A stretch of DNA of 20,000 bases from an uncultured virus (IMG/VR IMGVR_UViG_3300042351_001072) (Duplodnaviria; Heunggongvirae; Uroviricota; Caudoviricetes): IMG/VR virus record IMGVR_UViG_3300042351_001072; one strand, 5' to 3'. Position 1 is the first letter of the stretch. The number at the start of each line of letters is the position of its first letter. A program made the translations under genes and the position numbers. The notes under the pieces were generated by a model. It was given only the letters and a program-made list of their open reading frames with translations, searched no databases and had not been told where the DNA came from. Below are positions 1-14,475 of the stretch, one piece after another.

Positions 1-199
1 CATATACATTACCCATATATTCTCTATAATAACCTAATATATCCTTTGCTTTACTACGAAAACCAAGTTTTTTTACCATTACTGGGTTGAATCTTGGTAC
101 CTCACCTAAAGATTTTTGTTCATCCCAAAGATCAAAGAAATATTTCTTCACAGGATTAACCTTTTCTTCCATCAATATTTTCCTGATAAGATCTCTCAT
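1..199 (-). CDS. Hypothetical protein, paralog of 424..1014 (3' end runs off the window)
   Basis: Hand translation from ATG at 199: MRDLIRKILMEEKVNPVKKYFFDLWDEQKSLGEVPRFNPVMVKKLGFRSKAKDILGYYREYMGNVY..., open to the edge and colinear with the N-terminus of 424..1014; ATATTTAT motif 7 nt upstream. Confidence 0.9.
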   Translation of the reverse strand, partial: MRDLIRKILMEEKVNPVKKYFFDLWDEQKSLGEVPRFNPVMVKKLGFRSKAKDILGYYREYMGNVY

Positions 200-206
200 A
201 TAAAAT

Positions 207-214
207 ATAAATAT
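207..214 (-). promoter_or_regulatory. ATATTTAT putative phage late promoter
   Basis: GTGATATTTAT ending 7 nt before ATG 199; motif recurs before about 10 genes. Confidence 0.65.
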
Positions 215-219
215 CACAT

Positions 220-251
220 AAAAACAAAACCTGAGACGTAGTTCCTCAGGT
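220..251 (-). terminator. Rho-independent terminator
   Basis: Stem ACCTGAG/CTCAGGT (229-235/245-251), followed on the minus strand by TTTGTTTTT, just after the stop of ORF 260..400. Confidence 0.75.
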
Positions 252-259
252 CAATGGTA

Positions 260-400
260 TTAATCCACATTCTTATGTTTTTTCTTACGAGTGTAACATT
301 TCTTACTCTTTTGAACAATAGGTCTTGTCGCAGCCCATATCTCTTGAATTGTAATCTCAATAGTTTTCATCTTTCCGTATGTTTGAATATTGTTTGACAT
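260..400 (-). CDS. Small basic protein (46 aa) with ArfA-like C-terminal motif
   Basis: Hand translation MSNNIQTYGKMKTIEITIQEIWAATRPIVQKSKKCYTRKKKHKNVD; flanked by a TATATTTG promoter and a terminator. Alternative start at Met11. Confidence 0.75.
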   Translation of the reverse strand: MSNNIQTYGKMKTIEITIQEIWAATRPIVQKSKKCYTRKKKHKNVD

Positions 401-411
401 AATTAATTATA

Positions 412-419
412 CAAATATA
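412..419 (-). promoter_or_regulatory. Bacteroidota-type -7 promoter element TATATTTG
   Basis: Matches TAnnTTTG, 11 nt upstream of ATG 400. Confidence 0.65.
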
Positions 420-423
420 CAAA

Positions 424-1014
424 TTATTTTAATATATCCACATCAGCATCAGTAATTTCTGTACCATATTTTATTGCGAAGTCAATAATAAATGATTGAA
501 CTATTGTTTTAATCTCATCCTGTACATCAAAATAAGTAGACATATCATCTATTTCATTATTACCCCTTGAAATGTTGTACCTTACCTGAGTATATTCATC
601 TTGATCTTCATCATATTCGTCTAAATTTATATAACCTTCAAGTATATCAACATCAGCCTCAATGTTTTTATCTCCAAATATATATTTATCAACACGAACA
701 TTACTTAACTTAAACGTGAATATTAAATCTTCATCACCCCATTGTCTTCTAAAACTAAGGTCATCAGAATGAAATACCTGAGACGATAAAAAATCCAATA
801 AATTCTCTTCACCAACACTTTCCCCACCAATGTATTCAGTATAGTAATCACTTATCTCTATTGATCGTTTTCTAAAACCAAGTTTACCAATCAAACTATA
901 ATCAATAGTCGGATATTCACCATTAGATCTCATTTCATCCCAATGATCAAAGAAGAACTTTTTGATTGGGTTCATCTTTTCTTCTTTTAATATTTTTCTA
1001 ATTAACTCTTTCAT
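424..1014 (-). CDS. Acidic hypothetical protein with MKELIRKILKEE leader
   Basis: 196-aa ORF; paralog immediately downstream; ATATTTAT 6 nt upstream. Confidence 0.9.
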   Translation of the reverse strand: MKELIRKILKEEKMNPIKKFFFDHWDEMRSNGEYPTIDYSLIGKLGFRKRSIEISDYYTEYIGGESVGEENLLDFLSSQVFHSDDLSFRRQWGDEDLIFTFKLSNVRVDKYIFGDKNIEADVDILEGYINLDEYDEDQDEYTQVRYNISRGNNEIDDMSTYFDVQDEIKTIVQSFIIDFAIKYGTEITDADVDILK

Positions 1015-1020
1015 TATTCC

Positions 1021-1028
1021 ATAAATAT
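1021..1028 (-). promoter_or_regulatory. ATATTTAT putative phage late promoter
   Basis: CTATATTTAT ending 6 nt before ATG 1014. Confidence 0.65.
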
Positions 1029-1030
1029 AG

Positions 1031-1162
1031 TTAAAAATACTCTACTATCGTATATTCTATAATATTTCCATAGGTGTTAATCCAATCAATACATTCCTGT
1101 TGTGTTGCGTTTTCCAACATGATATCCCTTGTTGATATTTCTATTACGTTATAAGTTTCCAT
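1031..1162 (-). CDS. Small hypothetical protein (43 aa)
   Basis: Hand translation METYNVIEISTRDIMLENATQQECIDWINTYGNIIEYTIVEYF; starts 1 nt after the stop of 1164..2063 and fills the gap. Confidence 0.7.
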   Translation of the reverse strand: METYNVIEISTRDIMLENATQQECIDWINTYGNIIEYTIVEYF

Positions 1163-1163
1163 A

Positions 1164-2063
1164 TTAACTAAATGTTAAAGTTATTGTTTGTGATGGAGCA
1201 CCAACCGTAGATTGATTTGTTCCACCCCAGTTTGCATTATTAATCATAGGTCTAAGTGCGTATGTACTACTCGCAGTACAACTACCAACATTTGAGAACT
1301 CAACCGCAACACCACCAATTTTAGGGGTACCACAACCTGTCCCAACAAACCAAACATTGGCTCCGATTGTAACATTTCCAACAGTTGCAGTTCTTAAGTT
1401 ATTTGCAAGAGTTTGTACTTTTGTTGGGTCGGAAACCGTTATTGAACTTCCATTGGTACTTGACCAAACAAATTGTGTATATGTGGTACCAGTTAATTGA
1501 CTTCTAAATGTATTCCAAGCAGTTTCCATAGCTGACGTTGGCGCAACTCCTTGAGTAAATGCCTGAAAGAATGTAACACCACTAGCTGGCACTGACGAAG
1601 TTGTAGGTGTTGGTGTCGGTGTACTTGTTAAGGTTTGTGTTGGTGTTTGCGTAGGTGTTTGAGTTGGTGTTTGAGTTTGTGTAGGCGTAGGTGTTGGGGT
1701 TAGAACAACAACCCATGAACTCCAAAAACCTAACGATTCCAAATAATACTTACAATCATTCCCATTTGTAAAACTTTGTCCATAAACACCATTAACTAAA
1801 TCAACAAATGATTGTTCTGTCTTAAGTTTAGATCTATAAAATCTAACATAAGCAGGTACGTTATCAGGATTAGGTTGATTACCACTAAGGTTAGGTCTAC
1901 ATATAACATAACCCAAATCTTCATCAGGACCTTCCCACCATCTAACACCACCAATTCCACCTGTATAATCTAACGGATCAACACCAATAGCTAAGTCACC
2001 AACTTGGTCGGTGCCAGGTATTAATGACCCTGTATTATATGCAAATGGTCTTGATGTTGGCAT
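1164..2063 (-). CDS. Putative virion surface/decoration or fibre protein with Pro-Thr linker
   Basis: 299 aa; N-terminal domain (MPTSRPFAYNTG...), TPTPTPTQTQTPTQ... linker, T/G/S/N-rich C-terminal domain. Structural role is inferred from composition and architecture. Confidence 0.7.
   Translation of the reverse strand: MPTSRPFAYNTGSLIPGTDQVGDLAIGVDPLDYTGGIGGVRWWEGPDEDLGYVICRPNLSGNQPNPDNVPAYVRFYRSKLKTEQSFVDLVNGVYGQSFTNGNDCKYYLESLGFWSSWVVVLTPTPTPTQTQTPTQTPTQTPTQTLTSTPTPTPTTSSVPASGVTFFQAFTQGVAPTSAMETAWNTFRSQLTGTTYTQFVWSSTNGSSITVSDPTKVQTLANNLRTATVGNVTIGANVWFVGTGCGTPKIGGVAVEFSNVGSCTASSTYALRPMINNANWGGTNQSTVGAPSQTITLTFS
1599..1700 (-). repeat. Degenerate 6/12-nt coding repeat encoding the PT/QT linker
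   Basis: Units such as gtaggtgttggtgtcggtgt and gtttgtgttggtgtttgcgtaggtgtttgagttggt translate to (TP/TQ)n. Confidence 0.85.
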
Positions 2064-2866
2064 TATCTATTGTATGGTCTAAACCTCATTGGGTTTGCCT
2101 TAATTGCGGATTTAGGAAATCTTAATTTAGATCCCTGTTGTCTTGCATTTTTTAGTGTCCTTGCGTATTCCCACATTTCTCGTTTATTACTATTCTCCTG
2201 TTCTTTAATATTAAAGATAAAATGTATTCTCCACTTATTAATTATTCTATCCGCAATAAGATAAATAAAATCATCATAATCAATCCATTCTGATATACTA
2301 TTAAAAGTTAAATTTAAATCAACTTCAAACATTGGAATGGTACTTATACCTTTTCTTCTTTCTATATTTACAATACTTATTTTATCTATAGTATCAACAA
2401 CATCGCAAGCTGAAGGTCTATAACCTTCCTCATCAGATAGCCATTCAGGAAAATCGTTGGTATCCAGTTCTTCACAATTATGTTTAATTTCCTCTAACGT
2501 TTCGTCAACAATGTCTTGGAATGTTTCCGTCATTGTTTCTTTACTTAACTTGTTATTTATAGATTCGTTTATACCACCTCTACTTTTTCTTTCGTCATAA
2601 TAATAACCCTTAAGTAATGAATCGTAAGTTTTAATCATATAGTCAATAAAATTATCCACATCATCCTGAGGTTGATCTTCAATTTCAATATTATATTTGT
2701 AATGTATATAATTTTCTAGTGTCGCCTTAACTAATTTATATTTAAATTCTTCAAGACTTTTTGATTCAAAATAAATATAACCGATACCTTTCCTCATCAT
2801 TTTTTCAAACTTATGATGGTCAATTCTTCTTTTAAAGAATGGTGATAAATTGTAATCTTCTGACAT
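2063..2866 (-). CDS. Hypothetical modular protein; start probably ATG 2866 (MSEDYNL) rather than 2908
   Basis: ORF track 2063..2908; GTATTTAT (2873-2880) lies 6 nt upstream of ATG 2866; TAATG stop/start overlap with the next gene. Confidence 0.8.
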   Translation of the reverse strand: MSEDYNLSPFFKRRIDHHKFEKMMRKGIGYIYFESKSLEEFKYKLVKATLENYIHYKYNIEIEDQPQDDVDNFIDYMIKTYDSLLKGYYYDERKSRGGINESINNKLSKETMTETFQDIVDETLEEIKHNCEELDTNDFPEWLSDEEGYRPSACDVVDTIDKISIVNIERRKGISTIPMFEVDLNLTFNSISEWIDYDDFIYLIADRIINKWRIHFIFNIKEQENSNKREMWEYARTLKNARQQGSKLRFPKSAIKANPMRFRPYNR

Positions 2867-2872
2867 ATAATG

Positions 2873-2880
2873 ATAAATAC
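2873..2880 (-). promoter_or_regulatory. GTATTTAT variant of the putative late promoter
   Basis: Same 6-nt spacing to ATG as other copies. Confidence 0.55.
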
Positions 2881-2923
2881 CAGTTAAATCAAAAAACATT
2901 TTGCCCATTGATAGTTCTTTTAT

Positions 2924-2954
2924 TTTGTAAAGTCAAATGTTTTCACTATCTTTG
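2924..2954 (+). promoter_or_regulatory. Bacteroidota-type promoter TTTG-N19-TATCTTTG
   Basis: TTTG 2924-2927 and TAnnTTTG 2947-2954, 4 nt before ATG 2959. Confidence 0.75.
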
Positions 2955-2958
2955 AAGT

Positions 2959-3303
2959 ATGAAAGATATGAAAATTAAAGATATTGTGATGAAAGTTATT
3001 GACGTGTTGTACAACATCGTCGTTGGTGTATTAACTATGTTAGGTAAGGTGATTGTATTCTTGATCACACTTGCTCAGTCAAGTAGTATTGAAAAGTCAA
3101 AGTCCGCAGTTGACTTTATCTTCTCAGATGTTAAACCTAAAGTTAAATCAACTGTAAATAACAGTTCAACAATTAATGTTGAGCCTAAAAACAAACGTCA
3201 AGAACTTGAGGATAGCCTTCGTTATTTAAAGTCCAAAGTTAAAAAAACCGTTCAAGATAAAAATAACATTGGAGTTATTGAATCCGTTCTTAAAAATATG
3301 TAA
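2959..3303 (+). CDS. Hypothetical protein with N-terminal hydrophobic segment
   Basis: 114 aa; hydrophobic VIDVLYNIVVGVLTMLGKVIVFLITLA, basic C-terminus; own host-type promoter. Confidence 0.8.
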   Translation: MKDMKIKDIVMKVIDVLYNIVVGVLTMLGKVIVFLITLAQSSSIEKSKSAVDFIFSDVKPKVKSTVNNSSTINVEPKNKRQELEDSLRYLKSKVKKTVQDKNNIGVIESVLKNM

Positions 3304-3317
3304 CGGTAATACTTTTA

Positions 3318-3557
3318 TCAAATGTGTTTAATGTTTTTTGTTATATTAGTAAACCAATTTGGACCATACTTATCTTTGTAATAATTATTGTTTTGTCCTC
3401 GTTTACTTTCTTTATCATAAAACCCACTTAAATATGCTCTATTAACAATATTTTCTTCAACAGATTTTAGATTATTTAATTTTTCTACAATCTGATCGTT
3501 AGTTGGGTTCTCCTCTTGAATAAATTTGATAAGTGCATCTACTGGTGTTTTTTCCAT
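3318..3557 (-). CDS. Hypothetical protein; probable start MEKTPVD at 3557
   Basis: Track start 3641 overlaps 3562..3810; ATG 3557 follows that stop by 4 nt and has TTATTTAT 6 nt upstream. Confidence 0.75.
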   Translation of the reverse strand: MEKTPVDALIKFIQEENPTNDQIVEKLNNLKSVEENIVNRAYLSGFYDKESKRGQNNNYYKDKYGPNWFTNITKNIKHI

Positions 3558-3561
3558 AATA

Positions 3562-3810
3562 TTATAAATAAGTATCTTCAACAAAAATTGGTGTTTTCTC
3601 ACCCACATAAGCCCCAACAATATTATAGTAATAATGTTCAAGAGCGTCTTCCTCAGTCATATCCTCACTCATTAGTATTTCAATTACTTTTGATTTGGAA
3701 TACACTAACCTCATACTATTCTCTTCTATCCCTATGATACCATCATCAAGACCATCAGCCTTTAATATTTCCTCATCAGGATAATTCTCAACTATCTGAT
3801 CAAGTATCAT
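3562..3810 (-). CDS. Conserved small acidic phage protein
   Basis: 82 aa; ADGLDDGIIG...EDALEHYYYNIVGAYVGEKTPIF resembles a widespread phage hypothetical family; ATGA overlap with the upstream gene. Confidence 0.85.
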   Translation of the reverse strand: MILDQIVENYPDEEILKADGLDDGIIGIEENSMRLVYSKSKVIEILMSEDMTEEDALEHYYYNIVGAYVGEKTPIFVEDTYL

Positions 3811-4013
3811 TTTCTTCTCCCTCTTATTTTTTGAAAGAAACTAACATATATAGTTGCAATCAAAATATATAATGTCGCACTAATCCACAATGGAGCAGTT
3901 ACCCACCACCAAGACCAATCAATATAATTTGTAAGTTTTAGGACTAAGAATATTAAAAATAGAATGGTTCCTAAACCCATTCCTCCACCTGTGTTACTAC
4001 TTTTATTTCCCAT
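3807..4013 (-). CDS. Small two-helix membrane protein
   Basis: LFLIFLVLKLTNYIDWSWWWVTAPLWI, typical of a common phage/bacterial small membrane family; basic tail. Confidence 0.85.
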   Translation of the reverse strand: MGNKSSNTGGGMGLGTILFLIFLVLKLTNYIDWSWWWVTAPLWISATLYILIATIYVSFFQKIRGRRK

Positions 4014-4040
4014 ATTTTAATTATATGGGTTTTGATTTAA

Positions 4041-4619
4041 TTAGTCAATATAGTCAGGATCATTTTCTGATAACCATTCAAACATTTCCAATCTACATTC
4101 TTCTAACCAATCAGTACAGGTATCAATAATACTATCGTAGTAGTTTGAATTAAACCAATCTAATAACTCGGATATTTTATAAAACTCAAAATTAATCTCA
4201 ACAGGATAATATAATTGTGGATCATTTTCATAATTACGATTCCAATTATTATAAAAAATCAAATTTATTGGTAAAATATCACTACCATCCCAAAACATAG
4301 TTGCGTAACCGCCCATACTTTCTTTACTTTTTTTAAATGTAATTTCAAAAGTCCAAGATCCCACCATGCTATCAATATCAAGTTTAACATCAACACCCTT
4401 ATTACTAAAAGTTCTTGGTAAAACTTTCTTTTTAAAAATATAATAACTTAATATATCATTACACTCTTCGTTAGTAAATGGTGTTGTTTTTTGAAACATT
4501 ATATCAGCCAACTTAATAGGAAACTTATATCTTTTTAATGTTTCTATTAGACCAAACTCCTCAACAGATTGATCAACCTCATGTTTAATATTATCAATAT
4601 TTGATTCACTAATAATCAT
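4041..4619 (-). CDS. Hypothetical protein with MIISES leader
   Basis: 192-aa ORF, TAATG-coupled to the upstream gene. Confidence 0.85.
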   Translation of the reverse strand: MIISESNIDNIKHEVDQSVEEFGLIETLKRYKFPIKLADIMFQKTTPFTNEECNDILSYYIFKKKVLPRTFSNKGVDVKLDIDSMVGSWTFEITFKKSKESMGGYATMFWDGSDILPINLIFYNNWNRNYENDPQLYYPVEINFEFYKISELLDWFNSNYYDSIIDTCTDWLEECRLEMFEWLSENDPDYID

Positions 4620-6106
4620 TATGGTTGAAGTATTGAAGAAGCGTATTTATAAGATTCTTCAGGTATTTTACCTCTAAGTTCAGTAAATGGCGTTTTATTT
4701 TTAAACGCTTCTGAATATGCTTTTAAGTTAGGACCACTATTATATCCCGCAATTGAAAGATCAAGTCTTCCTGGAAATTTACTCAATAATACTTTCATCA
4801 TTTTAGGATACGCTTTCAACGCATCACTAACATTACAAGGATCACCACCACCCCCATAAGTTGGCCAAGTTCCCGGCATAAACTGAGCAATACCTTTAGC
4901 ACCCGCACTTGAATTTCTCTTACATAACATAACATCAGGACTAAATGCAGACTCACTAAATAATTGTCTGATTGCAATTTTTGGGTCTAACCCAATCTCT
5001 TCAACATCAGACATAAACGTTTCATAACTATCTCCAGCAGCATTTTTGAATCTAGATTCAATATCTGACGGGTATTCTCTAACTTTTATACCTGGATTTT
5101 CAATTACCATTGGATTAAAGTTTTTATTACTCTTATCACTTTTACCAAAAGTATATCTCTTACCTGTTATTTTAAATAATAAATCGCTTATAATACCACC
5201 TGTCGTATCAGGTGTTAATTTACCTGTCTGTTCTAAATTATTGGTTTCTTGATAGTCCTCAATAGCCTGTGTTGTTTCACCATCTACTTGACCTGTCATT
5301 GGTAAATCGCTTTTATTTATAACATTCAAGGAAAATTGCATGGTTTTAATATCTTCAGGTGTCGCTCCACTTTCCATATTATCTTTTTTAGATAATATGG
5401 TTTGAATTGATTTAAAAAGTCTTTGGGACGCAGTTTGGGTTTCAGTATTAGTACTACTATCAGTATTAGCACCAACCGTTATATTTTTTAAATCACCCAT
5501 ATTAGCATAAACCTGATCTCTCATTAACTTGTGTTGCGCAGATCCTACGTGAACACCATCATTACTCCAACTCATATCACCAACTAATTTTGGTATTACT
5601 ACCGCTCCAGTAATACTAGTCGCCAAATCAGTTTGGTATTTCACTCTTTTAGGTTTATAAGCTATCATACATTCTCTATCACAATATTTAGTTGGTTTAA
5701 CTTTTTCCGGATTAAATATTGTTTCACTGTCAAATCCTACCAATACAATTGCCTTTCCACCTTGACCATTAACTAAGTCAACCATTTTTTGTATATTACC
5801 AATTGGTTTTGTTATTGGTTGTGGAGACATTACGTCATTTGCACCACCATAAATGAAAACTAAATCATATTTTTTTTCACTTAATTTTGTTGTAAGGTTT
5901 TCCAACATCCAATCAGTTCTCATCCCACCTTTAGCAACCTGAGTTACATCCCATTCAGGATGGTCTTTAGCAATTAAGTAGTTCCATGTCCATCCATCAC
6001 CAGCACTATGACTATCACCAACAAACATAACATTAATTTTCCCGTTATCTTCTTTGATGAGGTGTACTAAAGTTTTTAATTGTTCTTCACTTATTATAAT
6101 CTTCAT
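4619..6106 (-). CDS. SGNH/GDSL esterase + peptidoglycan-binding-like + SLT lytic transglycosylase fusion
   Basis: SGNH blocks FVGDSHS, KGG, GGAND, DGVH; PG-binding-like GQVDGETTQAIEDYQETNNLEQTGKLTPDT; SLT motifs SESAF, SSAGAKGIAQFMPGTW, AGYNSGP, PEESYKY. Confidence 0.88.
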   Translation of the reverse strand: MKIIISEEQLKTLVHLIKEDNGKINVMFVGDSHSAGDGWTWNYLIAKDHPEWDVTQVAKGGMRTDWMLENLTTKLSEKKYDLVFIYGGANDVMSPQPITKPIGNIQKMVDLVNGQGGKAIVLVGFDSETIFNPEKVKPTKYCDRECMIAYKPKRVKYQTDLATSITGAVVIPKLVGDMSWSNDGVHVGSAQHKLMRDQVYANMGDLKNITVGANTDSSTNTETQTASQRLFKSIQTILSKKDNMESGATPEDIKTMQFSLNVINKSDLPMTGQVDGETTQAIEDYQETNNLEQTGKLTPDTTGGIISDLLFKITGKRYTFGKSDKSNKNFNPMVIENPGIKVREYPSDIESRFKNAAGDSYETFMSDVEEIGLDPKIAIRQLFSESAFSPDVMLCKRNSSAGAKGIAQFMPGTWPTYGGGGDPCNVSDALKAYPKMMKVLLSKFPGRLDLSIAGYNSGPNLKAYSEAFKNKTPFTELRGKIPEESYKYASSILQP

Positions 6107-6108
6107 AA

Positions 6109-7254
6109 TTAAACATTAAATAATGGTTCATTTTTAAATAACACTAACCCACCTTTACTTACAACTTCATAATCTTTGTTTTCAAATACCACATAGTTAG
6201 ATCCATTGTCACTTATAAACATCAATAAATCAACATAATTTGGATTATACATTTTCATGGAGTTTGTTGGTACCGCATATTTAAAACCATCAATTGTACT
6301 TGGTTTAAGTTTACCATTTAATGGTTTTATTTGGTAATATAAATTTTCACTATTCACTTTTAAATCTCTCCCATATCTTGTGTCTTGAATTGATCCAGGA
6401 CAATATTCAGTTAAACCACCTTCTTCAATATTATATATTTGTTTTAAAACATTAATCGCATTTTGCTCATTGGTAATACCTCTTTTTAATGTACTCCAAT
6501 TTAATTCTTCTAAATCATCCAAATATATAGATTCAGGACCTAAAATTTCTTCACTGTTATTTACTAACCAACTTAAAAATTTAGTTTTAAAATCTTCAAA
6601 AATGTCTTTTTTACCTTCTAAACTTGTTTTTGTTTTGTTTGCATATATTTCAAGTAACTTTGATATAACTTCCGAGTTTGTATCAAAATAATTTAATATT
6701 GACCAATCAGATATTAAAGAAAAATTTTCACCATATTTTACACCTCTATAATGTATAACACCTCTATTGGTTTTGCAATTTTCATCCTTAACTGACTCAC
6801 CATACATTGTATCTCCATTCTCATCTGTCTTGGTTGAATAAATTTTTTGCAGTAACTGTCTAAGAGTTTTTTGATAAGTGTCACCATCTTTATCATATTT
6901 TAATAGATATGACAAAGTTCTGTCATTACCAATAAGAACATTATATTTACCATCATTATTTAAAATGTATGGGTCCCAAGTAGGATTTTTAAATACAAAC
7001 GTATTTTTACCAATTTTTACTTCTTTACCGTCTTTAACAAGGATAATATCTTTATCACGATTATTTTGTATTAATATTTTATCATCATTACTTATTCCTT
7101 TCACAACAATAAGTGATGTACTACCGTAAGATTTTTTTTCTGTCGCAGTATATTTAATTTTTAGAGGTCCACCATCAAGTTCTTCGCCTTCTTTAATGAT
7201 ACCCATTAAAGTTTTTATCCTATCCAACTCCTCAATAATTATATTTTTACCCAT
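6109..7254 (-). CDS. Hypothetical protein, possible C-terminal PD-(D/E)xK-like nuclease fold
   Basis: 381 aa; leader MGKNIIIEELDRIKTLMGIIKE; C-terminal E(QNAINVL)...GRDLKV...YYQIKP. CDS secure, nuclease call tentative. Confidence 0.6.
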   Translation of the reverse strand: MGKNIIIEELDRIKTLMGIIKEGEELDGGPLKIKYTATEKKSYGSTSLIVVKGISNDDKILIQNNRDKDIILVKDGKEVKIGKNTFVFKNPTWDPYILNNDGKYNVLIGNDRTLSYLLKYDKDGDTYQKTLRQLLQKIYSTKTDENGDTMYGESVKDENCKTNRGVIHYRGVKYGENFSLISDWSILNYFDTNSEVISKLLEIYANKTKTSLEGKKDIFEDFKTKFLSWLVNNSEEILGPESIYLDDLEELNWSTLKRGITNEQNAINVLKQIYNIEEGGLTEYCPGSIQDTRYGRDLKVNSENLYYQIKPLNGKLKPSTIDGFKYAVPTNSMKMYNPNYVDLLMFISDNGSNYVVFENKDYEVVSKGGLVLFKNEPLFNV

Positions 7255-7259
7255 AACTT

Positions 7260-7267
7260 ATAAATAT
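7260..7267 (-). promoter_or_regulatory. ATATTTAT putative late promoter for the 7254-4041 operon
   Basis: GTGATATTTAT ending 5 nt before ATG 7254. Confidence 0.65.
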
Positions 7268-7935
7268 CACAATTTAATTTCTTTATGGAATCCGCTATAT
7301 TTTAACACTTCATCTCTTATATTTAACTCAAGATCAATTTTATTCCTGTCAACATTAAAATTACCTTCAGAACCAGCTTCTGTATTCCACCCATTTTTAT
7401 TACTATTTAAAAATTTAACAAAAAAGTTCTCAAATTGCATTATAAAACCTGGATCAGCATCACCATCCGCCCTTAGATAGTTAAACCCATAATCATTATG
7501 ACCAGCCCAAAAATCAACACTAAACCAACTAACTCCGTCATCATCCATCATTTCCACAATATGTACAGGAGTTTTTTCCTGATATTCATGTGGCGCGTAT
7601 TCCATAAAATAACAATAACTTTTAATGTCTATTTTTTTCTCTTCAGGATATATTCTAAAAATTAATTCGTGATTATCATTAAGATCAAAGTCAACAAGAT
7701 CAGTTAATAAATGCATATGATCTTTAGTATATTCCATAAAGAAATTACGAAAAGTACCAATCATAGGTACTTTTTTATTACTATTATGTGTTTGACCATC
7801 AAACAAAACTGTAGGTTGGAATGATCCTACATTTTCAATCTCATCACCGTAACAATGAACCAAAACCTCACAGGGACCAATGTCTTCAAGATAAAGAAAT
7901 ATTGCTTGAGCTATTTTATTTATCTTATTACTCAT
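7267..7935 (-). CDS. Diverged paralog of 7932..8597 (DUF6878-like)
   Basis: Colinear motifs FLYLE, SVDFWAGHNDYG, GWNTEAGSEG; ATGA overlap. Confidence 0.75.
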   Translation of the reverse strand: MSNKINKIAQAIFLYLEDIGPCEVLVHCYGDEIENVGSFQPTVLFDGQTHNSNKKVPMIGTFRNFFMEYTKDHMHLLTDLVDFDLNDNHELIFRIYPEEKKIDIKSYCYFMEYAPHEYQEKTPVHIVEMMDDDGVSWFSVDFWAGHNDYGFNYLRADGDADPGFIMQFENFFVKFLNSNKNGWNTEAGSEGNFNVDRNKIDLELNIRDEVLKYSGFHKEIKL

Positions 7936-8597
7936 TCTATATCTTCAAGTTTTATTTCAAGATGTAAATCACTGTCAACCTGTTCTCTAGTATTCCAAAT
8001 ATGTTCAATTTCAATTTCTTGTTTAGTTACAGTTATTACTCCAGTAGCACCTTCATTGTTTTCCCAACCACCAAATGATCGTTCCAAATAAGTATAAACA
8101 ACGTCTTCCATTCCCGCACTCAAATCATATTCAACTCCATTATTTCCTTCACCTTTATCTTCAATGTGTCCATCATCTCCACCGCCTTCATATTTAACCG
8201 TAATTGATTCAAGGTTGTGTTCATCTAAAAATGAATTTACTTCCTCGTTACCATTTAATTCATAACTATCACCAGCAGATTCTTCACCATTTTCTGTTAT
8301 TTCACTAGTAATAATCATAATTTTTGATTCCACTTTAAATTTTATAAATAAACGGTAATACTCCTCCTCACTTTCACTTTGAGACCCATACCATATTTTA
8401 TGACCATATTTTTCTATAATCATATCAAAAAGTGGTAAAAAATTAGACGGAATTTTAACGTCTTTACGTAATCCATTAATCCATACTTTTTCATCCCACC
8501 ATTCTATACTAGTTATTTCCATGCTAAAATCAACGGATGCCTCGTCGGTATTAAATTGTTCTAAATAAAGGAAAAATGATGTTAATAATCTTTTCAT
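7932..8597 (-). CDS. Acidic protein with DUF6878-like C-terminal domain
   Basis: VKYEGGGDDGHIE and GGWENNEGATG motifs; family name from recall. Confidence 0.7.
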   Translation of the reverse strand: MKRLLTSFFLYLEQFNTDEASVDFSMEITSIEWWDEKVWINGLRKDVKIPSNFLPLFDMIIEKYGHKIWYGSQSESEEEYYRLFIKFKVESKIMIITSEITENGEESAGDSYELNGNEEVNSFLDEHNLESITVKYEGGGDDGHIEDKGEGNNGVEYDLSAGMEDVVYTYLERSFGGWENNEGATGVITVTKQEIEIEHIWNTREQVDSDLHLEIKLEDIE

Positions 8598-8611
8598 AAT
8601 ACTATTTTATA

Positions 8612-8619
8612 ATAAATAT
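8612..8619 (-). promoter_or_regulatory. ATATTTAT putative late promoter
   Basis: In the short intergenic gap, 14 nt before ATG 8597. Confidence 0.5.
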
Positions 8620-8622
8620 AAG

Positions 8623-8976
8623 TTAATCGTCAAATTTCATCTTCATTGTACGTATCATCCACATTGGTCTTTCGTTTGACTCAATAGCCTTTATCCAATC
8701 GTGAGCACTTGGAATATAATTATTACAATCTTCTTTGATGTGATCTTCCCCCACATATCGTGTATAAACGACTTTACCATCACTATTGATGAATGAGGAC
8801 CCAAATATCTTTTCCATCTCAAAAATACCCTCTGAATGATGTCTAAACATCCTGTGTAAAGAATTTCCAACCCATGCTTTGGTCTCATCCAACCAATTAT
8901 GTAAATGGATATAATCTTCTTCTTTACCTCCGTATTTCTTAACTGAACTTTTTGCGTGTATTAATGGGTGTGCCAT
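8623..8976 (-). CDS. His-rich DUF6915-like protein
   Basis: MAHPLIHAKSSVKKYGG..EDY..HNWLDETK...HRMFRHHSEG...EDHIKED...IPS; family name from recall. Confidence 0.75.
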   Translation of the reverse strand: MAHPLIHAKSSVKKYGGKEEDYIHLHNWLDETKAWVGNSLHRMFRHHSEGIFEMEKIFGSSFINSDGKVVYTRYVGEDHIKEDCNNYIPSAHDWIKAIESNERPMWMIRTMKMKFDD

Positions 8977-9026
8977 GATAAATGATTTTTTTATATAATA
9001 GTGAATTTTATAATGGAATTGTAGTG

Positions 9027-9034
9027 ATATTTAT
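9027..9034 (+). promoter_or_regulatory. ATATTTAT putative late promoter
   Basis: GTGATATTTAT ending 5 nt before ATG 9040; orientation follows the plus-strand gene. Confidence 0.65.
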
Positions 9035-9039
9035 TATAT

Positions 9040-9240
9040 ATGAAAATTATAATCACAGAGAAACAAGCCGATATACTATTTGGAAATAAGATCCATTGTT
9101 CAAAATGTGATCACTCATGGAAAAAAGAAAAGGATGATAAACATCCTTATTTATGCCATTCATGTGGTTGGGATAACAAATCCAAAAAATATAATAAAGT
9201 AGAACTAAAAAAGTTTTGGGATAACCATACCAAAAAATAG
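9040..9240 (+). CDS. Small zinc-ribbon protein with MKIIITEKQ leader
   Basis: CSKC...CHSC pair in 66 aa. Confidence 0.85.
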   Translation: MKIIITEKQADILFGNKIHCSKCDHSWKKEKDDKHPYLCHSCGWDNKSKKYNKVELKKFWDNHTKK

Positions 9241-9241
9241 G

Positions 9242-11008
9242 TTATGCACGTTTTTGAACATAATTATTAGTAATCGCTTTAGAGGTAACTCCTTTAACCA
9301 TATCATTAGCTTTTTTGACCACATTATCATCATTACTAGCAAGTTGGGTTCCTTTGTCTATAAGTTTACCAAATTGATCATATGCTTTATATCCTTTATC
9401 CGCAGTTTTTGCATAATCACCTGATTTAACCGCCCCTTTAAAATCTTTTGTAAGTATTTTTTTATAATCCCCAATACCATAACCTAATTCAAGTGCGGTC
9501 TTTGCTTTATCACCAGCAACATAACCCGTAGCGTCCGCAGTGTATCCTTTTACTTTATCTTTAGCCGGATCGTATATAACTTTCTGTGTTATTTTTTTAG
9601 CATCTGCTTTAATTTGATCTTGAGTCAATTTTTTAATTCCAAGATCGGTCGCAAGTTTGGTTTCCGACGCAGCTCCCGTACCAGACCATTTCACTATACC
9701 TTGGAAAAGTTGTTCCATCCACGCAGCAGCTTTAGTAACCATGCCACCAATAGTTGTCGCACCAAGTTTTTCAACTACCCATGTACCCGCTTGTTTTATT
9801 AGACCCGCCGCCCAACTCAACGCACCACCAATCTTACTAACCCAAGGTTTAACGTATTTAATAAACCAAGATTGTTTGGCAATCTTTTGAAAAAATGAAC
9901 CAATTGTGCCTCCCGCCCCAAAAAATGGTTTTAGGAACTTACCAATGATTTTTGCTAATGCCCCCGCAGTACATAGACCAATTACGCTAAAAAATAATTT
10001 ACCCCAAGAACCAATACCTGAAGCAATTTGTGATACATCAAATAATGTTAATGCCGCCCATGCCGCGGTAACCCCAAGTGCCCCAACACCTGTATAATCT
10101 AATAATGTTTGTAGTATTGCCCCACCTGTACTCATAAGAATATCTCTCATTTGTTCAAAGAACCAAGGTATTCCTTTTTCTTTTAACCATGTAAAACCTT
10201 TTTTAACCAAATCAACACCAGCACCCGCAGCCGCTAAAAAAGTATTATAATTGGCTCCACTATAACCCAAACCTTCTAATCTTTTCCAAATTGCTCGGTA
10301 TTGAGTCGGATCAAAGTCTGACATCTCAGCATTAAGCCAAGCTCTAAGATTTCCATATGGTTTAATTTGATATGCAATTATTTCATTAACTTTATCTAAA
10401 ATATTTTTATTTACAATAAGATCTATTGCTTTAACCGCATCATCTTCATTTGTTCCGTCGTAGTCATCAAATACGTTATCACCATCAAGATCAAACGCCC
10501 TTTTTAACGCATTAACAACAGAATATGCCGCACTATCATTTTTAGCTTTAATATCAGCCTCACTCTTTAAAAACGCCGCCTTTTGTTCAGGTGTCATTTT
10601 TGCAAGAGCGTCATTTCTTTTTTGATTTTCAGCATCAATTTTTTTATCAATATCTTTAATCCATCCCCATCCCGACCAATCGTCGTCTTCTTCTTCAGAT
10701 AATATATTTGACTTTGTAACTTCATTTACAAAACTTTCTTTTAGAAACGAAAAGAATTTATCAACCTCATTTTTAGGATTGAATGTTGATTCAACAATTA
10801 CGTCACCATTAAACTCCCTTTCGTAACTCTCTCTAATAGTTTTATTATTACCAAATAAATTAGTAATGTACTCATTCTGACTTTCCTTTAGGAATACCGC
10901 TTTATTTGTGAAGTTAGGATTTGTCTCCATCTCAAATAAATGTAATCCCCTATGAAAATCTAATTGTCTTTCAACTTTAGATAAGTAATAATTTAACCTA
11001 TTGTCCAT
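9242..11008 (-). CDS. Large helical protein with annexin-repeat-like motif and Gly/Ala-rich hydrophobic region; candidate ejection/membrane protein
   Basis: 588 aa; several (L/I)xE-S/E sites in the first ~105 aa; GTNEDDAVKAI...YGNLRAWLNAEMS; hydrophobic GVGALGVTAAWAALTLF and LFFSVIGLCTAGALAKIIG. Confidence 0.65.
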   Translation of the reverse strand: MDNRLNYYLSKVERQLDFHRGLHLFEMETNPNFTNKAVFLKESQNEYITNLFGNNKTIRESYEREFNGDVIVESTFNPKNEVDKFFSFLKESFVNEVTKSNILSEEEDDDWSGWGWIKDIDKKIDAENQKRNDALAKMTPEQKAAFLKSEADIKAKNDSAAYSVVNALKRAFDLDGDNVFDDYDGTNEDDAVKAIDLIVNKNILDKVNEIIAYQIKPYGNLRAWLNAEMSDFDPTQYRAIWKRLEGLGYSGANYNTFLAAAGAGVDLVKKGFTWLKEKGIPWFFEQMRDILMSTGGAILQTLLDYTGVGALGVTAAWAALTLFDVSQIASGIGSWGKLFFSVIGLCTAGALAKIIGKFLKPFFGAGGTIGSFFQKIAKQSWFIKYVKPWVSKIGGALSWAAGLIKQAGTWVVEKLGATTIGGMVTKAAAWMEQLFQGIVKWSGTGAASETKLATDLGIKKLTQDQIKADAKKITQKVIYDPAKDKVKGYTADATGYVAGDKAKTALELGYGIGDYKKILTKDFKGAVKSGDYAKTADKGYKAYDQFGKLIDKGTQLASNDDNVVKKANDMVKGVTSKAITNNYVQKRA

Positions 11009-11029
11009 AATATTTTTAATTCTTATATA

Positions 11030-11037
11030 ATAAATAT
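11030..11037 (-). promoter_or_regulatory. ATATTTAT putative late promoter (divergent pair, left)
   Basis: 21 nt upstream of ATG 11008. Confidence 0.55.
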
Positions 11038-11067
11038 TACCATATACTAAAAACTATGATTTTTAAT

Positions 11068-11075
11068 ATATTTAT
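11068..11075 (+). promoter_or_regulatory. ATATTTAT putative late promoter (divergent pair, right)
   Basis: 7 nt upstream of ATG 11083. Confidence 0.65.
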
Positions 11076-11082
11076 ATAAAGT

Positions 11083-12054
11083 ATGAAAGATATTAAATTA
11101 CATAGTATTATAAAAAGAGTATTGTTGGAAGAGGTTGACGATAAGGCTTTTACCAAAAGAGAAATAATATTCTTTAAATTTTTAAACGAGTTTAAAGAAT
11201 CCGCTCAACCATCATCAGAAAAGTTAAGTAAATTTATCCAAAGTAATATGTCTTCATTTGGTTTTAAACCTGAGGACTATACCGAACTTTCAAATAGGTA
11301 CACTCAGAATTATAGAGAAGATGGCAGATACGAGGACACTAAAACAAGTGAACTTAAACAATATCACAACTTAAAAACTAAAAAGGTAACCAACACAAAC
11401 GCATCCGAAAGAGTCTCAGAACTACTACCATTTAAAGGATCTAACTTAGAAGGTAGATGGGAACAAGACGGTAAAGGTGATTGGGGTTATGTCGTTCTTT
11501 CATATAATTGGTATCCTATATACATTTACAAATATAAAAAATGGTTTGAAACTTCTAATTCATATTCATCATCCACATCTAAACAGATGAGGAATACAAG
11601 ACCAACAAGATGGAATAGTAAGATAGGAAAACAAATGTTGATTTGTGATCGTAATGAGATGGATCAGATAAGACGTGGTTCTATTAGTCCAGAACAATTA
11701 GTTGTAAATAAAAATAACAATTTTACTGAATCAATTGATAAATTGATTGACTCACATACTTTACAAACAATCAGAGTTGGTTGGTTCCCAAGATTAAGAT
11801 TATCGTTTTACTACACAGGAGTTAGATTCAATGAGAAAATGCCTGAGGTAGACATAAACATTGTTAAAGTTGATAAGATAATTGATAACAAAATAGATAG
11901 AGAATCAGGTGATTTCTTTACAGGTAATATGGTTGGTGTCACTGAAGAATATTTAAAAACCTCAGTTAATTCACACTTTGAAAGATCATTTACTGAAATG
12001 TTAGGTAGAGATCTATCCGAAAGTATAATAGTTAACATATCTTTTAAAAAATAA
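11083..12054 (+). CDS. Hypothetical protein with MKDIKLHSIIKRVLLEE leader
   Basis: 323 aa; central YVVLSY.WYPI...WF....YSSSTSKQ resembles a small stand-alone phage domain. Confidence 0.85.
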   Translation: MKDIKLHSIIKRVLLEEVDDKAFTKREIIFFKFLNEFKESAQPSSEKLSKFIQSNMSSFGFKPEDYTELSNRYTQNYREDGRYEDTKTSELKQYHNLKTKKVTNTNASERVSELLPFKGSNLEGRWEQDGKGDWGYVVLSYNWYPIYIYKYKKWFETSNSYSSSTSKQMRNTRPTRWNSKIGKQMLICDRNEMDQIRRGSISPEQLVVNKNNNFTESIDKLIDSHTLQTIRVGWFPRLRLSFYYTGVRFNEKMPEVDINIVKVDKIIDNKIDRESGDFFTGNMVGVTEEYLKTSVNSHFERSFTEMLGRDLSESIIVNISFKK

Positions 12055-12085
12055 AAAAGTCGGATCTAAGTCCGACTTTATTTTT
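12052..12085. terminator. Bidirectional intrinsic terminator
   Basis: Perfect stem AAAGTCGGA-tctaag-TCCGACTTT (12056-12079), A-tract before and T-tract after, between convergent genes. Confidence 0.85.
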
Positions 12086-12098
12086 ACAATCCTTAATT

Positions 12099-12335
12099 TT
12101 ATAACCCGTAGTTAACTCTTTTATCACCTAACAATTCCAAGGCTTTCTCAACCGCCATGTCTTTGTTTTTAAGACCACGTTCTTTAATCTTCTTACCATG
12201 TACGATTTGATAAGTAGTTGAAGCGACTTCTTTGTTATCACCTTTCCCAGATTGTTTTTTAATAGCTTCCATCGCATAAACATCTAAAAAACCAACTTTA
12301 CAAATGTAACGACCTTTTGTTGAACCTTTTACCAT
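12099..12335 (-). CDS. Small basic hypothetical protein
   Basis: 78-aa ORF with an A-rich leader and host-type promoter. Confidence 0.8.
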   Translation of the reverse strand: MVKGSTKGRYICKVGFLDVYAMEAIKKQSGKGDNKEVASTTYQIVHGKKIKERGLKNKDMAVEKALELLGDKRVNYGL

Positions 12336-12368
12336 TTTTTTATTTTTTTGTTTTAATTAATACTTCTA

Positions 12369-12376
12369 CAAATGTA
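12369..12376 (-). promoter_or_regulatory. Bacteroidota-type -7 element TACATTTG
   Basis: TAnnTTTG in the intergenic gap; GTTG 20 nt upstream (12397-12400). Confidence 0.65.
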
Positions 12377-12381
12377 CGAAT

Positions 12382-12729
12382 TTATTTTTGATCTGACAAC
12401 ATAAAATTTAAAAATTTTCTTATTGTCCTAATAATTTTTACTCTTTCAGGATCTTGTTCATCCATATCGTAAACATAATCAGTCATATCATTTTCATATA
12501 ACATATTTACAATACTATTTTCCATGTCTTTTTTTGACATATACCCATTAAACCCATATCCTGGCAACCCTTCAAATTTGTATTCCTTAACTTTTAATCC
12601 TCCCCAGTCATCACCTATCTTTCTTTCGTTAACCTTAAGTCTTCTAATTAAGAAATAAAACAATTTACTATCTATATCTTCGTGTTGTGAAGATATTTGT
12701 TCATTCTCATTCAAAGTTGACTTAATCAT
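12382..12729 (-). CDS. Hypothetical protein with MIKSTLNENE leader
   Basis: 115-aa ORF abutting the stop of the ferritin-like gene. Confidence 0.8.
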   Translation of the reverse strand: MIKSTLNENEQISSQHEDIDSKLFYFLIRRLKVNERKIGDDWGGLKVKEYKFEGLPGYGFNGYMSKKDMENSIVNMLYENDMTDYVYDMDEQDPERVKIIRTIRKFLNFMLSDQK

Positions 12730-13218
12730 TTATTTAAGAAATTTTAATTTGTAAAGAGTAGAATTTATTAGTTCTTCTACAGTATCAATTTGGTTCTGCA
12801 AATAACTTTCTTTAACTGAATCACGATTATCAGAAATAACATCCAATAACTCTTTAAAGTACTTAATTAATTGATCATTTGACTTATAATCAACCATATC
12901 AAAAGTTTTGTAATTTTTAACTAATCCGTGTTTACCCTGATATGATTCAACTAACCCGTCAACTAATCCATCTATACCTTCATAATATTTTTGTAGTGCT
13001 TTATGTTCTGAATATGAAGTTGTTTGTAAATGAAGGATATGTACTTGTGTTTGTGAATGTAATAACTTACAAACTATTTCACAAAACTGATCATTACTTC
13101 CTTCGGACTCTGAATCATTTTCATTATTGTCATCTTTGTCTTCAATTGTATCTTCCTGTTCGTATAAACCTTGTTTTTTTAATTCTTCAAACAATTTTTC
13201 TGTTAGATTTTTTTCCAT
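12730..13218 (-). CDS. Phage Dps/ferritin-like protein (DUF5856-like) with N-terminal leader and acidic linker
   Basis: HILHLQTTSYSEHKALQKYYEGIDGLVDGLVESYQG and LQNQIDTVEELINSTLYKLKFL. Confidence 0.8.
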   Translation of the reverse strand: MEKNLTEKLFEELKKQGLYEQEDTIEDKDDNNENDSESEGSNDQFCEIVCKLLHSQTQVHILHLQTTSYSEHKALQKYYEGIDGLVDGLVESYQGKHGLVKNYKTFDMVDYKSNDQLIKYFKELLDVISDNRDSVKESYLQNQIDTVEELINSTLYKLKFLK

Positions 13219-13230
13219 AGTTTTTTATTA

Positions 13231-13238
13231 ATAAATAT
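13231..13238 (-). promoter_or_regulatory. ATATTTAT putative late promoter
   Basis: 12 nt upstream of ATG 13218. Confidence 0.6.
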
Positions 13239-13246
13239 ACTCAAGT

Positions 13247-13747
13247 TTATGATTTTACAACCAAATCCTTTTCTGATATAATAATACTAGATTCATCAAA
13301 CGTACTATCTAACCTTAATATCTCATTTTTAATCTCAGAAAATGAAGACCACAATAACGATCCTTCAGTTTTTGGACTGTAATCATTATCAACCAAATAT
13401 TGTACTATAGTATTTTCTTCCAATGTTATGAACCCATGAGCAAACCCTCTTGGGACAATTAATTCATCACCACCTTTCATTTCAAAAAATTGGCAGTTAT
13501 TATACGATCTAAGTGGTTTCCTTAAATCCACCACAAAATCTAAAATTCTACCATTAATGACCTTTACCAATTTTGCTTGGGAGGTTTCTCCTGTTTGATA
13601 ATGTAATCCTCTTAATGTAAACTTTTTTGGGTTCACGCTAATATTACTTTGTTTCCATTCCTTGTCTAATTCAAACAACGAAAGAGGACTAAATGATCCT
13701 CTCTCATCATAGAATATTCTGTTGTTGATTATTCTTGGTTGTTCCAT
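13247..13747 (-). CDS. rmlC: dTDP-4-dehydrorhamnose 3,5-epimerase
   Basis: DERGSF, TLRGLHYQ, QAKLVKVINGRILDFVVDLR, VPRGFAHGFITL, ISEKD. Confidence 0.93.
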   Translation of the reverse strand: MEQPRIINNRIFYDERGSFSPLSLFELDKEWKQSNISVNPKKFTLRGLHYQTGETSQAKLVKVINGRILDFVVDLRKPLRSYNNCQFFEMKGGDELIVPRGFAHGFITLEENTIVQYLVDNDYSPKTEGSLLWSSFSEIKNEILRLDSTFDESSIIISEKDLVVKS

Positions 13748-14439
13748 TATATAAATTTAATTTCGTTAGTTATAGGGTCCCAATCAATATTCCATGGAGT
13801 ATGTGAATAAAGATATCGTTCGTTCAATACAGACGCATTGAAGTAGTGTGTGTGACCATCAAAGTAGTGTCCATGACCAGTATGGATATGACCACAGATA
13901 TGGATCTTAGGTTTGATTTGTTTGATTCTCTCCGCAAGTAATTCACAACCCAAGTGAACATTGCGGTTACCTTCAACATCATCTAATATTCCCCAAGCCG
14001 GTCCGTGAGTAATCAATATATCAATACCTTCAGGAATCATATCCCATTTTGCTTTCAACTCTTCACCATTTCGTGGTAAGTTAAATGCCCAATTGTAGAA
14101 CTCAGGTTGCCAAGGAGATCCCCAAATTTTAACTTCAGGACCATCACCATCTTGTGTAGTCATTAACTCATCTTGGACGTATTCAATAGTCTTGTACCCT
14201 GTTAATATATCTTTTACTTTCTCAACATTGTTTTGAAAACCCCAATCATGATTACCTGCAATGAATACTTTATGGTCATAGGTTACGATTTTATCGTACC
14301 AAGCAGCAAACTCACGTATCTCGTGTTCGTAACCCATAGAACTAATATCACCCGCATGGATTAACAAATCACCACCAGGTAAATCGTGGTGTACGTGTTT
14401 GTGTTTTCCGTGTGTGTCTGATATGATAGTTAATTTCAT
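13747..14439 (-). CDS. Calcineurin-like metallophosphoesterase (MPPED/239FB-like); start ATG 14439
   Basis: SDTH, HAGD, AGNHD, GSPWQP, LITHGP, GHIH; the track's TTG start at 14454 would run through the promoter. Confidence 0.92.
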   Translation of the reverse strand: MKLTIISDTHGKHKHVHHDLPGGDLLIHAGDISSMGYEHEIREFAAWYDKIVTYDHKVFIAGNHDWGFQNNVEKVKDILTGYKTIEYVQDELMTTQDGDGPEVKIWGSPWQPEFYNWAFNLPRNGEELKAKWDMIPEGIDILITHGPAWGILDDVEGNRNVHLGCELLAERIKQIKPKIHICGHIHTGHGHYFDGHTHYFNASVLNERYLYSHTPWNIDWDPITNEIKFI

Positions 14440-14443
14440 AATA

Positions 14444-14475
14444 CAAATATACAAAATTAATAGTGTAAATCCAAA
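14444..14475 (-). promoter_or_regulatory. Bacteroidota-type promoter TTTG-N20-TATATTTG
   Basis: TTTG (14472-14475) and TATATTTG (14444-14451), 4 nt before ATG 14439. Confidence 0.75.

Follow-up and report, generated by a model that had tools for sequence, protein, structure and literature searches.

Why do proteins with seemingly unrelated bodies begin with similar short peptides in a phage genome? The question is raised by a 20,000-nucleotide stretch (hereafter, the window) of the uncultured virus IMGVR_UViG_3300042351_001072 from IMG/VR, in which a preliminary description pointed out nine proteins with (I/L)-x-E tripeptides near their N-termini and proposed that these start peptides are capsid-targeting leaders, akin to those of the internal proteins of phage T4, attached together with a promoter to diverse domains. 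The window comprises bases 24068-44067 of a viral contig of 74,836 bp (31% G+C, about 26% complete according to CheckV), on which 129 open reading frames (ORFs) were called by a simple in-house procedure, and its source is an uncultured T4-type jumbo phage. Most of the window genes belong to no Pfam or PHROG family, and the nucleotide matches of the window among isolates are limited to 150-290 bp of thyA of Flavobacterium phage immuto. This phage is the closest isolate (41% identity of the capsid protein), and the main relative considered here is G005, a complete (100%) IMG/VR genome of 257 kb in which the gene order agrees with that of the right half of the region holding the listed proteins (1-13238).

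A leader peptide shared by otherwise unrelated proteins

The sharing of the leader is real and stronger than the preliminary description saw, and the circle of carriers is different. All nine quoted N-termini are present in the sequence as given. The (I/L)-x-E tripeptide turned out to be too loose to define the family because it is common on its own: [ILV]xE is found in 13-16% of related proteins per any 10-residue window. When tested without assuming any motif, the similarity of the N-termini is far above that of internal segments, which establishes a shared module at the N-terminus. Among 98 contig proteins, the N-terminal windows form 136 pairs with scores of at least 30 and 63 pairs with scores of at least 40, compared with 11-13 and 1-2 pairs, respectively, for internal windows. 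In a similarity graph of 346 proteins from the contig and G005, the N-termini are connected by 552 edges and include a single component of 104 proteins, whereas the internal windows yield 77-80 edges and components of no more than 10. A profile of the MNLQE... leader matches 30 of the 429 N-termini (17 from the contig and 13 from G005) and none of the 672 internal control windows.

In a six-frame scan, 19 of the 21 significant matches begin at the first Met of the respective frame. One of the two exceptions is an in-frame second leader in a fused G005 ORF (87190-88128, minus strand), a 312-aa open frame with complete leaders at residues 1 and 201 and no stop between them, which is either two fused leader genes or a small polyprotein. 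The other is a 20-residue remnant, LNLQESITRIRREETKQIIR followed by a stop (contig 8304-8363, minus strand), that forms the leader-like C-terminal end of the contig ORF 8301-8645 at the edge of an array of eight leader genes and looks like a decayed member of that array. In all, the leader is carried by 30 of the 129 contig ORFs, with tandem arrays of eight and six genes located outside the window.

Six of the nine proteins originally listed, those starting at 199, 1014, 6106, 7254, 9040 and 11083, belong to this family; the other three, MIISES (4619), MIKSTLNENE (12729) and MEKNLTEKLF (13218), show no similarity to it. The 184-aa protein encoded on the minus strand from 199 runs past the left end of the window (window 1-199, contig 23712-24266); its leader, MRDLIRKILMEE, is encoded at 164..199 (profile E-value 2.8e-5, with no matches among the control windows; graph degree 7), and 7 nt before its start lies a copy of the promoter box ATATTTAT (207..214, minus strand), preceded by a terminator-like stem-loop at 228-252. 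The 196-aa protein at 424..1014 (minus strand; leader MKELIRKILKEE at 979-1014, profile E-value 2.2e-5), with its own ATATTTAT box 6 nt before the start (1021..1028, minus strand), is a paralogue of the preceding protein; their bodies are 26% identical, and no Pfam or PHROG family was found for the 196-aa protein. Further along the minus strand, a box at 7260..7267, 5 nt before the start at 7254, precedes two leader genes: one for a 381-aa protein (6109..7254; leader MGKNIIIEELDRIKTLMGIIKE at 7189-7254), for which 69 homologues and an AlphaFold2 (AF2) model are available, and, as the second gene of the operon, one for a 495-aa cell-wall hydrolase (4619..6106; leader MKIIISEEQLKTLVHLIKE at 6050-6106, graph degree 12), in which Pfam and PHROG recognize SGNH/GDSL, PG_binding_1 and SLT domains.

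Two leader genes lie on the plus strand. The 66-aa Cys-rich, zinc-ribbon-like protein (9040..9240), with a ATATTTAT box at 9027..9034, 5 nt before the start, has a class-B leader, MKIIITEKQ (about 9040-9066); being below the size cut of the graph, it is counted as a member by its MKIIITE start. The MKIIITEKQ-type start is common to this protein and five other contig proteins, and the G005 orthologue is 68% identical. The 323-aa protein at 11083..12054 (leader MKDIKLHSIIKRVLLEE at 11083-11133, graph degree 9; box at 11068..11075, 7 nt before the start) has no Pfam or PHROG family. Between this gene and the convergent gene at 12099-12335 (minus strand) lies a perfect bidirectional terminator-like hairpin (12056-12079).

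The Glu-specific ending and T4-type head maturation

The leaders are helical, 12-22 residues long, and fall into several classes, namely MNLQExIRR(I/V)L(R/K)EE, MNLQExIxRIxxMMG(L/V/I)xxE, MKIIITE(S/K)Q..., (M)K(E/D)LI(R/K)KIL.EE and, in G005, MKKIIKLTESDLTRIVKRVI.E. What the classes have in common is the way they end. In 150 of the 161 leaders, [ILV]xE ends at positions 13-22, compared with 21-25 in shifted control windows, whereas [ILV]xD at the same positions is found in 12 of the 161 leaders versus 20-49 in the controls, that is, Asp is depleted. These counts are unbiased because positions from 11 onward lay outside the search pattern. All six leaders in the window end in an (L/I)-x-Glu-type motif, and '-INE' is a common ending. 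The codons of the leader vary synonymously while the residues are kept, and therefore, selection acts on the peptide. In the AF2 model of the 381-aa protein, built from 29 of the 70 available sequences (mean pLDDT 84), the leader is detached from the body, with a leader helix at residues 5-21 (pLDDT of about 50), a disordered linker at residues 22-30 and a confidently predicted body.

An ending of this kind brings to mind the prohead protease of T4. According to the relevant part of PMC9026906, gp21 cleaves behind L/I-x-E, an Asp in place of the final Glu prevents processing, and the propeptides that are cut off measure 10-19 residues in the internal proteins and 65 in gp23. A gp21-like protease, for which the preliminary description proposed to look, is missing from the contig of the window, and it is present in the relatives: Peptidase_S77 (PF03420) was detected in every one of the nine leader-bearing relatives with a completeness of 90% or more, and, by count of leader-bearing contigs, in five of five and then in 12 of 17, the five without it being 36-71% complete. 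The protease of G005 matches the T4 gp21 structure (PDB 5JBL, E-value 2e-13) as well as thousands of annotated gp21 genes and belongs to a T4-type head module that also includes a gp23-like capsid protein and a portal. Flavobacterium phage immuto likewise encodes a gp21-type protease. The end of the leader was also found to match the predicted capsid cleavage site. Each of the 11 capsid proteins from relatives contains L-I-N-E/A (the slash marks the predicted cut) in the column of the known cut site of T4 gp23, E65/A66, and the immuto capsid protein has V-S-E/A in the same column. By density of [ILV]xE, the protein adjoining the portal is in the 99th percentile, its 71-aa neighbour in the 98th and an acidic scaffold candidate in the 85th; the first two are head-core candidates. 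The connection between the leader and T4-type head maturation thus has indirect support, to which the promoter shared with virion genes adds.

The head module of G005 has some peculiarities of its own. The portal gene (L162:14400-18422, minus strand) encodes 1340 aa with an HNH-endonuclease-like insert, the gp23 match of the capsid gene (L162:7990-9828, minus strand) is in two pieces around an insert, and homing-endonuclease genes lie nearby. Mimicry of a scaffold segment by the leader was considered and discarded as too marginal: the best segment, NLYRIIKNEIS (residues 436-447), scores 14.4 against a background maximum of 14.1 in 3,560 windows. The predicted complex of a G005 leader (residues 1-45) with the C-terminal part of the scaffold candidate, run without controls, scored under the mark.

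Promoter boxes, cassettes and exchange of leaders between bodies

The window contains 10 copies of the ATATTTAT box where chance would give 5.7, a count that by itself is unremarkable because 12 of 200 shuffles reach 10. Its placement is more telling: eight of the 10 copies precede a start codon by 5-21 nt, on the strand of the gene, and of the 42 copies on the contig, 27 are found at a distance of 0-40 nt before a called start, most often 4-7 nt. As the preliminary description held, the leader genes sit behind this motif or in an operon behind it: this is the case for all 30 leader genes of the contig (15 with a box of their own and 15 in a tight operon), compared with 36 of 92 other genes, and the contingency test of a box directly upstream versus a leader gives a Fisher p-value of 7e-4 for the contig and 3e-4 for G005. 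In G005, the box is also present in front of the scaffold/capsid operon, the tail sheath gene, an adaptor-like gene and the gene for a gp25-like baseplate wedge subunit, and no further conserved element was found upstream of it. Terminator, promoter and leader form cassettes that flank variable genes. A tRNA-like sequence (GGTTCGAATCC arms; contig at about 11250-11900) lies just upstream of two ATATTTAT boxes outside the window.

A second promoter-like box, TAnnTTTG, is located 3-4 nt before the ATG of the phosphoesterase and cREC genes and many small early-type genes; in the window, upstream regions with this box are found at 13747-14454 and 18765-19175. This box fits what we take to be the host-type promoter of Bacteroidota. 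The spacing between either box and the ATG suggests leaderless mRNAs, with transcription beginning on the start codon or right beside it. Sigma-70 promoters are not enriched, with 69 found versus 80 expected.

The bodies behind the leaders are diverse. When the first 25 residues are removed, the 30 leader proteins of the contig fall into 25 BLASTP body families. Among 107 full-length leader ORFs on other viral contigs, 98 have no Pfam family (E-value 1e-3); the Pfam bodies include two Pterin_4a proteins and three P-loop kinases, and below the threshold, there are one ADP-ribosyltransferase, one terpene synthase and one DUF6624 protein. The Pfam-defined enzymes sit directly behind the leader.

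The family of the 381-aa protein is particularly informative with regard to leader exchange. Its 69 homologues are all metagenomic, and five leader classes are found directly before the conserved start of the body, which contains invariant D...Q-x-K and C-x-G residues and, in the C-terminal domain of the model, shows weak Foldseek matches to PD-(D/E)xK nucleases (I-Ssp6803I, PvuII and DpnI; best E-value 8e-3). In a quick maximum-likelihood tree of this family (65 rows, with four sequences dropped, three for being short and one for lacking an initial Met), a class-B clade with support of 96-99 encloses two type-2 leaders, and the leader labels require nine changes on the tree against a minimum of five. 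In addition, two bodies that are 47% identical carry different leader classes. By these sequence comparisons, the leader classes are interchangeable, and one such exchange, within a single body family, is well-supported. In one body family, three leader-bearing copies are behind a ATATTTAT-type box and two leaderless copies are behind TAnnTTTG, 3 nt from the ATG, an anecdote with n=5. The proposal of a portable promoter and leader module on diverse bodies is thus upheld by the 25 body families, the class exchange and the cassettes; the ferritin-like protein, which had been included among the carriers, is not shown to be one. The 281-aa protein of the window (2063-2908, minus strand) contains an 'FF.RR(I/L)' body domain that is found behind leaders elsewhere (G005 84368) and is itself leaderless; its C-terminal 27 residues resemble the beginning of a different protein of G005.

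The ATATTTAT promoter is not restricted to leader genes, as illustrated by the gene for the 221-aa DUF6878 protein (7932..8597, minus strand), which has no leader and has a box at 8612-8619 upstream. The 588-aa protein (9242..11008, minus strand; box at 11030-11037, 21 nt upstream) had attracted attention because of repeated (I/L)-x-E-like sites near its N-terminus. It lacks the leader, and the clustering of the sites holds, with seven of its 10 [ILV]xE sites within residues 1-105. Its residues 137-438 are homologous to a G005 protein that does carry a leader. Near residues 305-360, two hydrophobic helices lie in a region rich in Gly and Ala, and the protein may act on membranes as a virion component made with a long propeptide. 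The 162-aa Dps/ferritin-like protein (DUF5856; 12730..13218, minus strand; box at 13231-13238) starts with an acidic extension of about 60 residues (with LTE, LFE and LYE) that is conserved in G005 and is unlike the leader classes.

The other families recognized in the window, besides the hydrolase, DUF6878 and the Dps-like DUF5856, are DUF6915, an RmlC-like epimerase, a metallophosphoesterase, ClpP, ThyA and cREC; ClpP, ThyA, RmlC, the phosphoesterase and cREC are indeed without a leader, as had been claimed. The 299-aa protein at 1164-2063 (minus strand), with no family match, consists of two domains separated by a long Pro/Thr/Gln repeat linker (TPTPTPTQTQTPTQ...).

Outside this contig, the leader is largely a viral feature. 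The pattern M-N-L-Q-E-x-I-x-R-(I/V), which represents one leader class alone, matches at least 156 stretches in IMG/VR, many of these on contigs of 200-335 kb, and yields no fewer than 176 distinct ORFs. When applied to 596 Gb of prokaryote genomes, this pattern matches in 48 places, only two of which continue as a leader, both on one 3.3-kb contig that was binned into a metagenome-assembled genome. Ten relatives have one to eight copies each of the MNLQE class, and a reversed control pattern gives no matches. Among 50,697 phage isolate records, tblastn with the 381-aa protein and a 29-residue leader found no cultured carrier of this leader class. In the part of immuto that was scanned (150 of 160 kb, ORFs on the plus strand only), two proteins share a related leader, MKKQILSEQF.RMQ.LAGIITES, and three have another shared start; judging by titles and the beginnings of abstracts, no virion proteomics of immuto was found among the literature matches listed. 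The strings MNLQE, MKIIITE and LTESDL were not found in the full-text literature, and a topic search returned nothing relevant by title.

What the leader could do and why it matters

The reading that we favour, and to which we assign a somewhat better than even chance of being correct, is that the leader is a greatly expanded analogue of the T4 capsid-targeting sequence (CTS), a propeptide that is removed by the prohead protease. By analogy with T4, we infer core binding, cleavage, packaging and delivery of the leader proteins. The amphipathic leader helix of 12-22 residues would dock the newly made protein onto the core of the assembling head, the gp21-type (Peptidase_S77) prohead protease would then cut after the Glu of the terminal (I/L/V)-x-E and remove the leader, and the freed bodies would remain inside the head until they pass, together with the DNA, into the next host. 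The cargo would include the cell-wall hydrolase, the nuclease-like protein, the zinc-ribbon protein and many bodies of no known family. Genes would acquire the tag as a compact module that consists of a terminator, the ATATTTAT promoter and the leader, with the promoter belonging to the class used by virion genes.

Several observations weigh against this reading. The tagged genes are numerous, 30 of the 129 ORFs here and about 40 of the 338 in G005, and we know of no phage that loads nearly as many proteins; to our knowledge, a head-packaged transglycosylase also would be an unusual cargo for a contractile-tailed phage. The bodies of the leader proteins are acidic on average (-4.9 versus -1.1 net charge per 100 aa), nine of the 115 type-2 leaders lack [ILV]xE at positions 15-24, and the N-termini of T4 IPII and IPIII score below 0 bits on the leader profiles, that is, show no similarity of the leader to the T4 CTS. 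The ATATTTAT box precedes 52 other genes, one instance being in front of an operon with SSB and UvsX-like genes, and because of this, its 'late' status is presumptive. The contig of the window, being only about 26% complete, holds neither protease nor capsid (head) genes, so that the link to head maturation rests on the relatives, and the co-occurrence with the protease is not independent evidence because all leader-bearing genomes belong to one T4-like clade.

The fraction of tagged ORFs, seemingly high for capsid cargo, would be easier to understand if the leader were no capsid address but a helix that docks its proteins elsewhere in the late infected cell, be it on a chaperone, in an assembly factory or at a membrane site that they share, and were not necessarily removed. 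An amphipathic helix that is detached from the body and is found on many unrelated bodies is compatible with such a role, and a DnaJ-like protein, recognized by its N-terminal sequence, is encoded in G005. This explanation, which we consider unlikely, is without an identified candidate partner and does not account for the ending at a fixed distance that is Glu-specific and Asp-depleted, nor for the match of this ending to the predicted cut site of the capsid protein. Even less probable, in our view, is that the element acts mainly at the level of DNA or RNA, as a recombination handle for the shuffling of gene cassettes or a start region that favours translation of transcripts beginning almost at the ATG, with the peptide being a by-product. 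In most leader genes, the box ends 4-7 nt before the ATG, so that the transcripts are likely to be leaderless or nearly so, the terminator-promoter-leader cassettes flank variable genes, and the leader classes are exchanged between bodies, all as would be expected of such an element; yet, the codons vary synonymously with the residues kept, half of the leader genes (15 of 30) reside inside operons without a promoter of their own, and a helical residue pattern that ends in a specific Glu motif is conserved across several classes.

The presence of a ClpP gene in the window (15189-15917), and of ClpP in four of the five complete relatives, brings up another function, that of a degradation or activation tag that is read by the phage ClpP or by the host ClpXP and limits the lifetime of late accessory proteins. 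However, the complete G005 genome, with about 40 leader genes, encodes no ClpP, and the ClpP gene of the window sits among genes without the ATATTTAT box, which makes this possibility quite improbable. The least credible of the alternatives is that the leader is the last conserved remnant of a single, fast-diverging family of paralogues, to which the tandem arrays of eight and six genes and the full-length paralogy of some members would otherwise point. Pure paralogy is excluded by the Pfam assignments of the bodies, which are to unrelated families (SGNH/SLT, Pterin_4a and P-loop kinases), and by the exchange of leader classes inside a single body family; besides, leaderless copies of a body family exist.

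The capsid-address reading can be taken further, if only tentatively and with a better chance of being wrong than right. Under this extension, the system is plug-and-play: any gene that receives the module would have its product packaged in the head, released by the protease and delivered along with the DNA, so that each virion would carry dozens of pre-made effectors, possibly nucleases, kinases and ADP-ribosyltransferase-like proteins in addition to cell-wall enzymes. The same body could then be deployed by two routes, either leaderless from an early, host-like promoter or leader-tagged for the next infection.

The principle of a capsid-targeting peptide is familiar from T4, where diverse internal proteins share only the CTS (PMC3012670), and CTS-like sequences have been noted in close relatives of T4 in what PMC9026906 says of them. 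As far as these accounts go, the CTS of IPI, IPII and IPIII and the Alt propeptide, which are removed by gp21, resemble the leader in that a short N-terminal peptide is the sole shared part and ends in (L/I)-x-Glu, with 10-19 residues in T4 versus 12-22 here. Also present in the clade of leader-bearing phages are a protease of the gp21 type and a capsid protein of the gp23 type in which the cut site is conserved. In contrast to T4, there are several interchangeable leader classes, each with an extra (I/L)-x-E near the start, and about 30 tagged genes in 75 kb or about 40 in the 257-kb relative, compared with a handful; furthermore, the bodies are acidic whereas the T4 internal proteins are basic, and the leader system is known from sequence alone. 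Given that the leader profiles score the T4 internal proteins below zero, the resemblance is one of design rather than of sequence. In phiKZ, 201phi2-1 and SPN3US, many head-internal proteins are likewise cut after Glu by a gp21-related protease, with redundant propeptide sites, but these phages belong to a different clade, the P3 residue is S/A (S/A-x-E) as opposed to I/L/V in the leaders, and the part of PMC9026906 that covers them describes no shared portable leader. Thus, the T4 CTS principle is known; what is new, at the level of sequence, are the dissimilar peptides, their several interchangeable classes and an order of magnitude more tagged genes.

Outside phages, a comparable logic is seen in encapsulins, where a short terminal cargo-loading peptide sends unrelated enzymes, including ferritin-like ones, into an HK97-fold shell; such a peptide is usually at the C-terminus and is left uncut, and the system is cellular and involves no protease. 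As for the cassettes, the PeSL (promoter-early stem-loop) elements of T4-type phages, which have been proposed to drive modular shuffling of small variable genes, similarly place a stem-loop and a promoter directly before small, highly variable genes. Unlike PeSL, the leader cassette uses the virion-gene class of promoter and continues past the start codon, where it encodes the conserved peptide.

Should the leader prove to be a capsid address, infection by these phages would bring into the cell a large, fast-changing set of pre-made proteins, an order of magnitude more than the few that T4 delivers. The late-expressed leader genes without a known function would then become candidates for effectors that take over the host or counter its defences in the first minutes of infection, so that many 'dark' accessory genes of jumbo phages would have to be re-read, and the leader itself would serve as a sequence handle for picking such genes from metagenomes. 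It could also be used to tag foreign proteins for loading into phages of Bacteroidota-type hosts, in the way the T4 sequence is already employed. Should it prove to be something else, the peptide shared most widely in this clade would still need an explanation.

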